A stretch of 64,000 bases of DNA, from positions 133,486,001-133,550,000 of the forward strand of contig JBNRSN020000007.1 in NCBI GenBank assembly GCA_051313645.2, given 5' to 3'. The DNA comes from Centroscyllium fabricii. Taxonomy: Eukaryota. Positions within the stretch are counted from its first letter, which is position 1. Each line of letters starts with the position of its first letter. Shown here piece by piece: positions 13,915 through 21,489 of this stretch. The notes below the pieces were generated by a model. That model was not told the origin of the DNA. It was given only the letters and a program-made list of their open reading frames with translations, and ran no database searches. The position numbers were made by a program, and so were the translations under genes.

Positions 13915-14772
13915 CAGGTTGAAGTTCGTTAATCCGGATCCCGAAAAACTGGCAACTTCGAACGTCCGGCAATAATTTCCCCGACTGCCATGCGCATGCG
14001 CAAAATGGCCACCGCGATCGATGCTTCAGTGAATGATCTGTGCATGCGCTGCCGAACGGCGAGTGCATGCGCAGATCATTCACAATGGCCGAGCCGATCC
14101 CGAGCCGAGCCTGGCCACTGCGAGCCTCCCCGAGCCTGGCCGCTGCGAGCTTCCCTGAGCCTGGCCGCTGCGTGCTTCCCCGAGCCTGGCCGCTGCGTGC
14201 TTCCCCGAGCCTGGCCGCTGCGAGCCTCCCCGAGCCTGGCCGCTGCGAGCCTCCCCGAGCCTGGCTGCTGCGAGCCTCCCTGAGCCTGGCCGCTGCAAGC
14301 CTCCCCGAGCCTGGCCGCTGCAAGCTTCCCCGAGCCTGGCCGCTGTGAGCCTCTCCGTGCCTGGCCACTGCGAGCCTCCCCGAGCCTGGCCGCTGCGAGC
14401 TTCCCCAAGCCTGGCCGCTGCGAGCCTCCCCGTGCCTGGCCGCTGCGAGCCTCCCCGAGCCTGGCCGCTGCGAGCCTCCCCGAGCTTCCCCGTGCCTGGC
14501 CACTGCGAGCTTCCCCGAGCCTGGCCGCTGCGAGCTTCCCCGAGCCTGGCCGCTGCAAGCCTCCCTGAGCCTGGCCGCTGCGAGCCTCCCCGAGCCGGGT
14601 CTTCCCGAACGATCAGCGCATGCGCAGACCTCTCAAAATGGCCACCGGCCTTTTGCGGCGGCCATTTTGAATGGTTTGCGCATGCCCTCACCGAAACTTC
14701 AATCGTTCGAGATTTTCACTTGTCCGGTACGGGCCTGGTCCCGCCCATGCCGGATTAACGAATTTCAACCTG
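13915..14772. mobile_element. Tc1/mariner(pogo/Tigger)-like MITE
   Basis: 23-bp TIRs CAGGTTGAA(G/A)TTCGTTAATCCGG with TA on both flanks. Confidence 0.85.
14105..14597. repeat. 25-bp GC-rich minisatellite inside the MITE (~19 copies)
   Basis: Unit GAGCCTGGCCGCTGCGAGCCTCCCC. Confidence 0.9.
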
Positions 14773-15810: not shown

Positions 15811-16164
15811 GAAAGAAAAAGACTTGCATTTATACAGCACCTTTCATGAACACCGGACGTCTCAAAGCACTTTACAGTCAATGAAGTACTTTTGAAGTGG
15901 AGTTGCTGTTGTAATGTGTTGTAATGATGTCATGAGAAGTGCTATATAAATGCAAGGTTTTCTTTCACACGTGTACAAACTTGAACATGCACGATTGTGC
16001 ATTTCCTTCATTTTCCCCCTTCCCTCAGACACTGGCTCCTGCTGGCATACATGATTTCAAGGGCGCTGGCCATCTCCGTCCATCACTTCACATGTGAATC
16101 TAGATGGTGAATCATGGGCTGGCTATTTGTGTTGGGACATTACCCAATATTTGTATCTGAGCAT

Positions 16165-16431
16165 TGAGGAGCCTCAAATCAGAGCCGAAAGGCTTTTATT
16201 TACAAAGAACTGAACCTAGTCTGCGATGAGTCCGCCCGGAATGAGAGTCAGGTGGGCAGAGCATTCTCCTTTATACTCATCCCGAGGCGGGATCAGCCGG
16301 TCCAGGTCCTTACAGAAAGGTACAGATTTTTAACACAAACTATATATAATTATCCAGAAAGGTACAGATATATTAACACAAACTATATACAATAATAGCA
16401 CAGTGTGAACCACACCAAATGGTTCATCACA
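16165..16431 (-). repeat. 3' LTR (267 bp)
   Basis: TG...CA termini; direct repeat of 21005-21290 with a 16-bp deletion and scattered substitutions. Confidence 0.92.
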
Positions 16432-16957
16432 TTCACCCCTTCCTTAAAAGAAAGTCCCGCGGGGCGAATATCAGCACTGTGTTATCAGTCTTTGAGGTCG
16501 AACAGTCCGATTAGACCTGCGAGGCAGTGGCGGTTCTCACGAATAGGCGGGAGTAGTCGCAATCGGAAAAGGCGCTGACGGGGCTCCCGACGTGAACAGG
16601 GACTCCACCGGTGGAAGAGGTACCTCAGGCGCAGGAAGATCTGGTGGAGGTGTAGCAGCCGCCGGAAGAGTAGGCTGAGCAATGTGATGAGCTCCGTCGT
16701 GCATTGTGGGTGATGAGGGCCCCGATGTAGTGTGCGCAGGTGAATGAAAAGATGGCCCCTGTTGTGAAAATGTGACCTGGGAGGGCAAGGGCTCCGCCAA
16801 CGACTCTAAGTGAACGTCTGCAGCGGGCGCAAGGTCTCTAATCGAGACGGTATCCTCACGCCCGTCTGGGTACTCCACGTAAGCATACTGAGGGTTGGCA
16901 TGCAGCAGGCACACACGTTCAACAAGAGGGTCCATCTTGTGTCCACGGACGTGCCTC

Positions 16958-18835
16958 CTAAGCAGAACCGGCCCCGAAGTCGATTTCCTGGGGAAAGAGA
17001 AGTTTCTCGTGAGGCGTGCAACCAGTGGCTGTACACAAGAGGGAATGGGTAGCGTGGAGCGCATCCTGTAGGACCTCCTGCCAGTGGGAGGTTGGAAGGC
17101 CTTTGGATCGAAGGGCCAGGGTGATGGCCTTCCAGATGGTCCCTTTATAACGTTCTACCTGACCGTTCCCCCGGGGGTTGTAACTGGTCGTTCTGCTCGA
17201 GGCAACCCCCCGCACGAGCAGAAAATGACGCAGTTCGTCACTCATAAATGAGGACCCCCGGTCGTTGTGTATGAAGCCGGGAAGGCCGAAAATGGTGAAT
17301 AGCGTGATAAGATGCTTTATCACTGTTGCACTCATCATATCTGGGCATGGGAATGCAAAAGGGAAACGGGAGAACTCGTTGACCACAGTGAGAATGTACG
17401 AGTTACGGTTGGTAGAGGGGAGGGGACCTTTGAAGTCCACACTCAGGCGCTCGAATGGGCGGGTGGCCTTGATGAGGTGCGCCCTGTCAGGCCTGTAAAA
17501 CTGGGGCTTGCACTCAGCACAGACAGGGCACTCCTGCGTCATCGCCTTGATCTCCACAATGGAATAAGGGAGATTGCGTGATTTGACGAAGTGAGCGAGC
17601 CTGGTGACCCCCGGGTGGCAGAGATTAGCGTGGAGGGTGTTCAGACTACCCGACTGGGCGCTGGCACATGATTCTCGGGACAGGGCGTCCGGGGGATCGT
17701 TAAGCTTCCCTGGCCGGTACAGAATGTCGTACTCAAAAGCGGAGAGTTCGATCCGCCACCTGAGGATCTTGTCATTCTTGATCTTACCCCTCTGTTTATG
17801 GTGGAACATAAACGCTACTGACCGCTGGTCAGTAAGAAGGGTAAAACGTTTACCGGCCAAATAGTGGCGCCAGTGGCGCACTGCTTCCACGATTGCTTGG
17901 GCCTCCTTTTCCACTGAAGAGTGGCAGACTTCAGGGCCCTGTAGGGTGTGGGAGTAGAAAGCGACAGACCTGCCTGCCTGGTTAAGGGTGGCGGCCAGGG
18001 TGAAGTCTGAGGCATCGCTTTCGACCTGGAAGGGAAGAGACTCATCAATGGCGTGCATGGTTGCCTTGATGATGTCTTGCTTGATATGCGAAAATGCAAT
18101 TTGGGCCTCTAACGGGAGTGGGAAGGAGGTAGCTCTGAGGAGAGGCCGGGCCTTATCAGCATAATGGGGAATCCATTGTGCATTATACGAGAAAAATCCC
18201 AGGCATCTCCTCAAAGATTTGGGGGAGTGCGGCAGGGGCAACTCCTGAAGGGGGCGCATATGCTCGGGGTCGGGGCCGAGGACCCCGTTCTCAATTACGT
18301 AGCCGAAGATTGCCAACCGGTTAGTATTGAAAACGCACTTATCCTCATTGTAAGTGAGGTTCAGACGCTGGGCCGTACGGAGAAACCTGTCCAAATTGGC
18401 ATCATGATCTTGCTGGTCATGGCCGCAGATCGTGACATTGTCCAAATATGGGAATGTGGCCTGCAAATGGTACTGGTCAACCATTCGGTCCATCTCCCGT
18501 TGGAAGACCGAAACTCCGTTGGTAACCCCAAAGGGGACCCGGAAGAAGTGAAAAAGGCGCCCATTTGCCTCGAAGGCAGTGTATTTATGGTCCTCAGCTC
18601 TGCTGGGGAGCTGGTGATAGGCCGACTTATGGTCGAAGGTGGAGAAGACCTTATACTGGGCAATCTGATTGACCATGTCATTGATCCTAGGAAGCGGATA
18701 AGCGTCGAGCGCAGTGTAACGGTTAATGGTCTGACCATAGTCAATGACCATGCGCTGTTTGTCGCCCGACTTAACCACAACCACCTGGGCCCGCCACGGG
18801 CTGTTACTGGCCTCGATGATGCCCTCCCGCAACAA
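16958..18835 (-). pseudogene. pol: Gypsy pol: reverse transcriptase, RNase H, integrase (frameshifted at both ends)
   Basis: RT (SPWRAQVVVV, DAYPLPRI, PFGVTNG, YLDN), RNase H (ESDASD, EKEAQAI, TDQRS), integrase (H..HPG...CPVC, SVDFKGP, HNDRG, NGQVER); C-terminus continues in ORF 16537-17064. Confidence 0.92.
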
Positions 18836-19006
18836 CCGAGCAACCTCTGCCTTAATAAATTTGCGGTCCCCCGCGCTGTATCACCGACTCTTAGTTGCAA
18901 TGGGCTTGCAGTCAGGGTCAAGGTTGGCAAACAGCGAGGGGGGTCTATCTTCAAGGTAGACAGACCGCAAGAGGAGTGTGGTTGTGAGGCAGGGCAGTCG
19001 CGGCTG

Positions 19007-19405
19007 CTAACCATGAGAGGAGGCAGGGGACCGCCGTACGCCATCGTCAAGCTCTGCAGGTGGCACTGGAAATCCAGGCCAAGCAACACGGGCGCAGAGC
19101 TGTGGGAGGACGTACAGTGGAAAGTTGCTGTATGTCGTCCCCTTCACAGTAATGGTGACTGTACAGCAGCCGATGACGTCCACAGTCTGGGACTCGGAGG
19201 CGAGGGAGATTTTACGATGTGCGGGCCTAACCCTGAGGGAATAACGGTGCACTGTATCAGGGTGTATGATGCTCTCTGTACTCCCAGTGTCGAACAGACA
19301 GCGGGTGAGGTGCCCCTCCACCCGGATGGGCATCATTGATAAAATAAGAGACGGGTTCGGGGCTGTAGAGGCAAGTGTGGTGAGCGCGCTGGGGCCCTTG
19401 TGCAA
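19007..19405 (-). pseudogene. Gypsy aspartic protease fragment
   Basis: CLFDTGSTESII catalytic motif; LLGLDF in the adjacent frame (ORF 18361-19089 start). Confidence 0.85.
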
Positions 19406-19639
19406 TGCAGGGTCCGCGTGTGATGGCGGCGCCCGTGATTCGCACGCGGCGGGCCGCGGTGGTGTTTCGGACCGTTGGGTGAGTCACCGAGAAAGCCGTT
19501 GGGAGGACCGAAGGGCTCGTGGCGCACAGGCGCCCGAATGCTGAATTGGTCTGGAGTGGTCTGTTGCTGCTGCCAGGATCGTAGTGGTTGCTTTTAAGTT
19601 GCCTGTTACTGCAGCAGCCTGTACTTTTAAAATGTTCCT

Positions 19640-20030
19640 GCACAAAGATGGCGGCATCACGTGACTGGGCAGGCCCGCTGCTCTCGGAATGTGGTCTGTC
19701 CTATACCAAGATGGCAGCGTCACGTGATGGGGCGGGGCCGCTGATGCCATGGCGCAGGAAGATGGCGTCGTCATGTGATGGGGCGGGGCCCCTGCTGCCT
19801 GGATGCAGGCCGTCCTGTACCAAGATGGTGGCGTCACGTGATGGGGCGGGGCCGCTACTGCCGTGACGCGGGAAGATGGCGGCGTCACGTGATGGGGCGG
19901 GCCTCTGCTGCCCGGTGGCCCAACGGTGACCCCGTTTCGTGCCGTTCCAGGGAGGAAAAAGGCCACGCCCCCAAAGATGGCGGAGATCCAAAGGAGGAGA
20001 AAGAAGGCCACGCCACCAAAGATGGCGGAG
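19640..20030. repeat. ~48-51-bp imperfect tandem repeat between gag and protease
   Basis: Five copies of AAGATGGCGGCGTCACGTGATGGGGCGGGGCC-like unit plus two shorter AAGATGGCGG units. Confidence 0.8.
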
Positions 20031-20966
20031 CATGGGAAACGACGCTGGCAGTCCGCACCCGAGGCAGGGTAGGTAGTAATCGTTCTGGGGGCCGCTGATG
20101 GGGTCGCTAGTTACCTGAGGCCACTCTGTGTCGTGGACATTGCAGGCTGCTGCCGTTTTTCTTGCAGATTCCGGGGCCGATCGGCAGACCTTCGCAAAGT
20201 GGCCCTTCTTGCCACATTTGTTGCAGGATGACGACTTTGTTGGGCAGGAGCTTCGTGGATGGCGTTTCTGGCCACAAAAATAGCATTTCAGAGGTGCTGG
20301 CTGTCCAGATGGCGCCGTGGTCGCCACAGTCGCCGTCGAGGGCGTCGAACGTGAGTCCCAAGGCCCAGGGGAAACCGTGTGGGAGCTGTGCCCCGTGCAT
20401 GAATCCAGGCTTTGGAGGGCCCCATCCACCGCGTTGGAAAGCTTCACCGCCTGATTCAGGGACAAATTATCCTGCTCGAGCAGGCGGGTGCGAGCTGGGG
20501 CCGATCTGATTCCTGCCACGTAGGCATCGCGGACGAGGAGGTCCATGTGCTCCTGGGCGTTAACAGGGGCACATCCACAGCGCAGAGCGAGAGCTTGAAG
20601 AGCCTCCAGGTACTCCTCATTCGACTCACCATGCTGTTGCCTCCGCGTGGCGAGTAGATGGCGAGCGTAGATGGCGTTGACTGGCTGGAGGTATTGAGCC
20701 ATCAGCAGCTCCAACGCTGCATCGTAGTCAGTGGCATTCTTTATGATAGAATATAACCTGCCACTCACGCATGAGACCAGGACTCGTCTCCTGTGCGCAT
20801 CGCTGACTCCGGCCACTACCAGGAACGATTCGAAACAGCTCAGCCAGTGCTCAAAATCGTTCGACGCGTTCGGTGCCTTGGGGGTTGAGGTCGAGAGTTT
20901 TTGGTTTAAGGATAGTTTTCCAGTTTTCTGATGCTGCTGGCTGGTGGCTCTGTTGTTGGTCATCAT
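19701..20966 (-). pseudogene. gag: Gypsy gag with two zinc knuckles
   Basis: CYFCGQKRHPRSSC and CNKCGKKGHFAKVC knuckles; YARHLLATRRQQHGES gag-like motif; follows the 5' LTR. Confidence 0.88.
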
Positions 20967-21004
20967 CCTGCAGGCTCATTGTAAAAATTATTTGTAAATA
21001 AAAT

Positions 21005-21290
21005 TGAGGAGCCTCAAATCAGAGCCGACAGCTTGTTCTAACGAAAGGCTTTTATTTACAAAGAACTGAACCTAGTCTGCGATGAGTCCACCCGGAATGA
21101 GAGTCAGGTGGGCGGAGCATTCTCTTTTATACACATACCCAGAGGTGGGGTCAGCCGGTCCAGGTCCTTACAGAAAGGTACAGATTTATTAACACAAACT
21201 ATATACAATTATCCAGAAAGGTACAGATATATTAACAGAAACTATATACAATAATAGCACAGTGTGAACCACACCAAATGGTTCATCACA
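21005..21290 (-). repeat. 5' LTR (286 bp)
   Basis: TGTGATG...CCTCA; TATAAAA at 21131-21125, AATAAA at ~21056-21051; internal ~42-bp duplication. Confidence 0.92.
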
Positions 21291-21489
21291 AGCATTTTCC
21301 AACAGGGGTTGCTGAAGAGATCCAACGCGGGAAGCCTGGCTGATCTTTTTCTCCCTTAACCCCAAGATGCTGAGGCCAATTGTGAAGTTCCTGCTGCTGT
21401 CCTGAATCAGCACAGGCAAGGGATTGTACCATGGATCACCCTGGTTAGTATGGCTTAGCAACAACAATAAGGGTTTATGTAGCACCTTG

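Follow-up and report, generated by a model that had tools for sequence, protein, structure and literature searches.

The Ty3/Gypsy element described here, from the genome of Centroscyllium fabricii, carries no tRNA primer-binding site; at the corresponding position stands a 13-base segment that is the exact complement of a stretch of its own long terminal repeat (LTR), and that stretch, the partner, contains the poly(A) signal. Comparison among copies indicates that this self-primer pairing is a real and selected feature of the whole lineage. That the pairing serves self-priming of one kind or another we regard as very probable, and as reasonably probable the specific form in which the predicted primer is an internal LTR segment of the element's own RNA, set free by cleavage behind the poly(A) signal. 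The broadest proposition, to which we give a little better than an even chance, is that self-priming evolved independently of Tf1/sushi in a widespread animal Gypsy lineage, in which the poly(A) signal would have been turned into a primer (cut internally or trimmed from the 3' end), the duplex would silence the 5' signal, the primer site would be rewritten in each round and no host tRNA would be involved.

The element lies on the minus strand of the window, the 64-kb stretch of DNA that was analyzed. It is complete but decayed, with several frame breaks in the gag-to-integrase coding region. Its membership of Ty3/Gypsy is indicated by TG...CA LTR ends, a target duplication and a polypurine tract, all of which are present, and the domains follow the Gypsy order of gag, protease, reverse transcriptase (RT), RNase H and integrase, with Ty3 providing the nearest solved RT. 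The features, in the direction of the element, are as follows.

21291..21295, minus strand: target site duplication, left copy (ATGCT), 5 bp
21005..21290, minus strand: 5' LTR, 286 bases, TG...CA; identical to the 3' LTR at 257 of 266 aligned bases
21125..21131, minus strand: TATA box TATAAAA, 69 bases upstream of the partner; 22 of 28 family representatives have it within -67 to -73
21096..21100, minus strand: initiator-like TCATT, its A at 21098 being the predicted transcription start; 23 of 28 representatives have a similar motif between -36 and -44, versus 0 of 28 in a control window
21050..21062, minus strand: partner segment and predicted self-primer, with AATAAA at 21056-21051 and a predicted cut after 21050; from pairing and covariation
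21004..21017, minus strand: possible small inverted repeat at the U5 end, abutting the primer site; weakly supported
21004, minus strand: spacer of a single base, A, separating the LTR from the primer site; 186 of 187 copies have A here, and the register is common to the tRNA-type and chromodomain elements of the genome
20991..21003, minus strand: primer-binding site, a 13-base exact complement of the partner, with no TGG
19701..20979, minus strand: gag, with two zinc-knuckle-like CCHC arrays and a frame broken near its start; from open reading frames and domain reading
19007..19483, minus strand: aspartic protease region, in a frame different from those of the adjoining regions
16958..18880, minus strand: RT (YLDN motif), RNase H and integrase core in a single open frame
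16537..17154, minus strand: integrase C-terminal tail in a different frame, partly deleted, no chromodomain
16432..16445, minus strand: polypurine tract
16165..16431, minus strand: 3' LTR, 267 bases, with a 16-base deletion in U5; second partner copy at 16206-16194
16160..16164, minus strand: target site duplication, right copy (ATGCT), 5 bp

Between gag and protease (19640-20030) there are imperfect tandem copies of a 29-base motif at 51/63-base spacing, and outside the element (14005-14702) lies a 25-base tandem array with flanking inverted repeats. The RT motif, near 18437-18426 in the window, takes the form YxDN in 28 of 37 rows of the clade and YxDD in 7 of 37, with none found in 2 of 37. 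YxDN is associated with BEL/Pao elements, and a literature search returned nothing relevant to the motif.

On the element strand the 5' LTR ends CA at 21005 and is followed by a single A (21004) and then by TTTTATTTACAAA at 21003-20991, with no TGG; its exact complement is at 21062-21050, the two arms being separated by 46 bases. A sequence-only reading of the window had reported this arrangement, with AATAAA inside the partner, TATAAAA at 21131, an initiator-like TCATT at about 21098 and a further partner copy at 16194-16206, and each of these observations was confirmed. In the window's subfamily there is also another initiator-like motif, TCAGT, 5 bases upstream of the partner. An anchored complement of at least 13 bases arose in 1 of 5000 dinucleotide shuffles of the LTR. 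The folding energy of the 146-base leader is ordinary (z of -1.41, with 18 of 200 shuffles as good), and the case is therefore built on position and covariation, with energy excluded. The small inverted repeat at the end of U5 has arms that match each other better in the same family than across families (0 of 5000 swaps) and gives z < -1.5 in 11 of 28 representatives versus 1-2 of 28 in controls. A hairpin immediately upstream of the partner is weak (z < -1.5 in 9 of 28 representatives), and swaps lend no support to an outer helix in the region of the gag start codon (1080 of 5000) or to an inner one (4946 of 5000).

The evidence that carries the pairing comes from the remainder of the genome, which has 7.2 billion bases in all. 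An initial DNA search returned 30 near-identical copies, 28 of which were parsed, all with the same site; because the query contained the site, this sample has little probative value, and copies were therefore re-collected by gag protein, with the window gag and a stingray gag as queries. The resulting set represents 198 of the 238 gag places listed. Both arms could be anchored in 187 of these copies and not in the other 11, with positions 1-4 of the pairing fixed by the anchor. The original proposal had been set against two possible outcomes, namely a TGG tRNA site in other copies and pairing that is not conserved or does not covary, and the data show neither. No TGG tRNA site occurs at the primer position in any of the 187 anchored copies, and covariation is strong both in this genome and in metagenome relatives. 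Watson-Crick pairing at positions 5-13 is found in 173-182 of the 187 copies, falling to 78 at position 14 and to a single copy at the spacer, which is A in 186. Perfect 13-base pairing is present in 146 of 187 copies and is realized by 23 different sequences.

Among 62 distinct arm pairs, 492 of 558 cells are paired, compared with a mean of 372 and a maximum of 402 in 10,000 shuffles. As shuffles ignore relatedness, changes were also counted on a gag tree, giving a minimum of 51 two-sided changes at positions 6-13, with 20 at position 8, versus 67 changes of the LTR arm; these counts rest on one FastTree gag tree and are inflated by recombination between subfamilies. Position 8 uses all four Watson-Crick pairs. 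Sixteen duplex types were seen in two or more copies, of which 14 are perfect, 2 miss an end pair only and 0 have a shared G-U pair, an absence that fits copying better than stepwise compensation. In predicted folds, the central pairs have a mean probability of at least 0.8 in 26 of 28 cases. Stem position 10 (21059 with 20994) stands out: the neighbouring positions vary freely, yet 180 of 187 copies have a G-C pair there, possibly as a signal for recognition or for a second cut.

Several further properties of the copies bear on how the element propagates. Both LTRs were recovered for 93 of 132 elements tried, and the 5' LTR, the 3' LTR and the primer site agree in 69 of the 93; the primer site alone differs in 10, the 5' LTR alone in 5 and the 3' LTR alone in 4, with all three different in 5. 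These counts leave the priming models unseparated. A trace of primer copying was sought in the sequence after the 3' LTRs and rejected, as the flank matches the primer site at background with the exception of 2 of 86 elements, both tandem (L252 and L273), in which a common middle LTR is followed by a second primer site and gag. Elements that possess gag and lack RT still carry the duplex, which fits a signal required in cis. Of the 86 elements in the L242-L290 series with both LTR ends located, 33 are short (~1.8-2.4 kb) and consist of gag, in most cases together with part of the integrase tail, and have no protease or RT; an exact 5-bp target duplication flanks 24 of the 33, and they constitute non-autonomous gag-only families that retain the duplex. 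Inside U5, some families (L084, L253, L254, L262, L278 and L283) contain another, partial complement of the partner, with which an alternative hairpin could form in both LTRs; in the predicted fold of L084 this hairpin outcompetes the main duplex. A block of 45-49 bases from the partner to the LTR end has been exchanged between subfamilies (L035-L060 and L174-L196), with an identity of 0.57-0.59 versus 0.92 in gag.

Where the partner lies in the RNA was judged with a ruler taken from the same genome, namely eight chromodomain elements of one lineage (L371-L378) for which the start site is assumed from Tf1/sushi. These elements have an 11-base complement, a one-base spacer and, in 7 of 8, a TATA box 29 bases before the partner, with the poly(A) signal 350-400 bases downstream. 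They are young, their LTRs being >99% alike, and their self-primer signature exists in three covarying versions; of two further chromodomain loci fetched, one is without such a complement and the other without an LTR pair. The 28 family representatives of the present lineage differ from this: 22 have the TATA box at -67 to -73 and none has one at -42 to -18, and in 23 an initiator-like motif falls at -36 to -44, the place expected for a start 29 bases after TATA. The two motifs are kept together, 30-33 bases apart. Measured against the ruler value of -29, their positions argue that the partner is probably internal, some 36-44 bases inside the RNA, whereas in Tf1-type elements it is the RNA 5' end, as described in the accessible parts of two reports (10.1101/2022.12.06.519325, PMC7175516). 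The internal location had originally been suggested from the motifs of the window element, and the comparison with the chromodomain self-primer elements points the same way. No TATA box at a fixed distance from the partner was seen by eye in distant metagenome relatives, and the internal position is therefore argued for the families of this genome only. Contigs of runs X1, X5 and X6, the data kind of which is not on record, contained no molecule start or end and no loose poly(A) end among those shown, and are neutral on this point; no RNA data set was listed as containing the element.

The principal competing account of the start site is that the reverse-transcribed RNA begins at the partner or a few bases from it and that its 5' end is the primer. 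Tf1 is a direct precedent (PMC7175516, PMC4600332) and Tf2 uses alternative start sites (PMC5341516), according to the parts of these papers available to us. Such a start would pose no primer-tail problem, and 112 of 187 copies do have a second initiator-like motif, TCAGT, 4-5 bases upstream of the partner. However, all of those copies belong to the window's own subfamilies, the interval in which a TATA box would be expected is empty in all 28 representatives, and TATA and initiator are paired farther upstream, and we consider this geometry unlikely. A similarly low probability attaches to priming by the 3' copy of the partner, whereby the end of the RNA would pair with the primer site, be trimmed to the end of the poly(A) signal and be extended, with the upstream R serving in strand transfer. 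This would explain why R exists upstream of the partner and would make a second cut unnecessary; the partner's end, at the poly(A) signal, is 10-30 bases from the expected RNA end, and the two LTR copies are indistinguishable in DNA, with 69 of 93 elements in agreement at all three sites. Against it, the site is predicted to be occupied by the 5' copy, 46 bases distant. One subfamily pair is alike in upstream R (0.94) and in the partner (1.00) but not in the block from partner to LTR end (0.59), and exchange confined to that block fits strong-stop DNA limited to the same block; this evidence is weak, because a conserved motif there would attract crossovers under either model.

It could also be argued that concealment of the 5' poly(A) signal is all that the duplex achieves, with the HIV-1 poly(A) hairpin as a parallel, and that synthesis is primed in another way, for instance by a tRNA fragment or a protein. 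In favour of this, 185 of 187 partners hold the sole A[AT]TAAA of the region, and position 6 alternates just between the two common signals, with the change matched in 12 copies. The element would, however, be left without any primer site, and neither the exact primer-site register nor the lack of shared G-U intermediates would be explained; moreover, 7 of 12 distant families have a partner without A[AT]TAAA that nevertheless ends TAA(A) at the same place. One fixed tRNA cannot match 23 different sites, the best result of a scan against 11 distinct tRNA genes, all of them for Cys or Lys, was 7 matches to the primer site, and covariation of the primer site with the LTR argues against priming by a half-tRNA. 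We hold it improbable that hiding the signal is the duplex's whole function. There remains the thought that the match is an accident of AT-rich sequence, for which the composition of both arms and the unremarkable energy of the whole leader might be cited. In view of the 1 in 5000 shuffles, the covariation in 23 types and ~12 distant families, and a flank after the 3' LTRs that stays at background outside the two tandem elements, its probability is negligible; covariation rules it out.

In the mechanism that we favour, with an internal LTR segment as primer, transcription would start near 21098-21102, as the conserved motifs suggest, and bases +36 to +49 would fold onto the site right after U5, in keeping with the covarying complementarity and the predicted RNA structure. 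By analogy with Tf1, the element's RNase H would then cut after the A run and before a conserved G/A-C-C. This cut, ~50 bases inside the RNA, would leave a 3' end one base from the LTR terminus, from which the enzyme would presumably copy only the 45-base block back to the cut, and the strand may then jump to the RNA 3' end by means of the short stretch between poly(A) signal and poly(A) site. Plus-strand copying of the primer would finally rewrite the primer site from the LTR, so that one partner mutation could be matched without a second mutation. The register of the pairing, CA plus one base, is the same in four tRNA-type elements of the genome, which belong to another lineage and in which TGG follows (L381, L383, L384 and L387), and in the chromodomain self-primers. 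Cutting of an element's own RNA by RNase H has a precedent in Tf1 (PMC7175516, PMC4600332), the cDNA of which carries a copy of its primer (PMC11042837), as set out in the parts of these sources that were accessible.

A primer of ~50 bases would have an unpaired 5' tail of 36-40 bases, which plus-strand synthesis would copy unless there were a second cut or a stop, and nothing found in this analysis accounts for the tail. An internal primer thus demands a cut and probably also a second cut or stop, and we know of no studied RNase H that makes internal-primer cuts of this kind. The predicted cut site and strong-stop length are exact.

The duplex would have a second use in hiding the 5' poly(A) signal, whereas the 3' partner copy has no primer site behind it and its signal would stay open. 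In this genome such a use is likely, as in 185 of 187 copies no A[AT]TAAA occurs between the initiator and the LTR end apart from the one in the partner, and position 6 switches only between AATAAA and ATTAAA, in matched fashion in 12 copies. The idea that the hairpin conceals the signal, also part of the sequence-only reading, fits the element's own genome, but in distant relatives the hexamer is within the partner of only 5 of 12 families.

Those relatives were drawn from metagenome contigs, in which 80 loci yielded 36 with a gag match and 32 with enough upstream DNA. A perfect duplex of 11-18 bases is found at the LTR end in 18 of the 32, representing ~12 families; among the remaining 14, 3 have 7-base matches and 11 have none. 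Several of these 14 look damaged by eye, and in the others the LTR junction was probably not located. The metagenome partners end TAA(A), followed mostly by G/A-C-C, and AATAAA or ATTAAA, read by eye, is present in the partner of only 5 of the 12 families. A search of viral contigs gave no relative. Named relatives identified by protein come from stingray, ascidian, aphid and mantis shrimp, the closest being the stingray proteins. The impression that the element lacks a chromodomain was borne out, since no match to the Chromo domain was obtained up to an E value of 1 in 12 of 12 full-length relatives or in the integrase tail of the window. In an RT-RNase H tree of 53 rows, from which 70 of 123 available rows were omitted as redundant or nested, 37 clade rows fall on one side of a branch (SH-aLRT 100) and apart from the genome's chromodomain elements; the tree was made by a quick method and is unrooted, with a long-branch warning and no named Tf1/sushi references. 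The lineage is a chromodomain-less Ty3/Gypsy group, separate from Tf1/sushi. Candidate homes for it are the Mag lineage and the Cigr-1 clade, which it may resemble in short LTRs, a length of ~5 kb, a double CCHC gag, the lack of a chromodomain and a wide distribution in aquatic animals. Both are named animal Gypsy groups in the available part of PMC6238403, and the supplement files searched for that paper and for PMC8556966 do not contain the clade motifs.

The known systems share parts of this design. In Tf1 and Tf2 of Schizosaccharomyces pombe and Tj1 of S. japonicus, as far as the accessible text of the reports goes (PMC7175516, PMC4600332, PMC5341516), a tRNA site is lacking; LTR RNA of the same element pairs with the primer site, and an RNase H cut provides the primer. 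The present element likewise has no tRNA site and a primer site complementary to its own LTR. The yeast elements, however, are chromoviruses with a three-helix "pretzel", whereas here there is no chromodomain and the two flanking helices are unsupported. The vertebrate Tf1/sushi elements of the same genome (L371-L378) have in common with the present lineage the complementarity of primer site and LTR, the one-base spacer and a 5-bp target duplication. They differ in their 11-base complement, TATA box at -29, distant poly(A) signal, LTRs of ~570-630 bases and YMDD motif, and their RT, ~30% identical, forms a separate branch. Self-priming has been predicted from sequence for the plant Copia elements TAR, Houba and Osr-1 and for Tcn1 (PMC6317226); TAR is akin to the present case in that self-priming arose outside the chromoviruses, but the plant elements belong to the Copia superfamily, Tcn1 is a chromovirus, and the accessible part of that paper describes no internal primer. 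Fungal GalEa Copia elements and bivalve TRIMs have a conserved hairpin site and no tRNA site, with inverted repeats that, in the part of the source available, lie wholly in the internal region (PMC6934838), whereas the present element has one arm in the LTR.

The literature that we found, seen in part, places self-priming in Tf1/sushi, Tcn1 and the plant TAR/Houba Copia elements only, and treats it as characteristic of the Tf1/sushi chromoviruses, with a few plant Copia families in addition. No description of a self-primer signature in a non-chromovirus animal Gypsy group was found there, Repbase, GyDB and most subscription journals lying outside its scope. The present analysis adds the calibration of the internal position, for which chromodomain elements of this genome served as reference, and the counting of matched changes on a tree. 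If the proposal is true, there is a second, unrelated and abundant animal Gypsy lineage that primes itself with a different geometry, and independence from tRNA arose repeatedly. The use of primer sites in the classification of elements would then change, and elements of this kind may lie beyond the reach of defences that are based on tRNA fragments.
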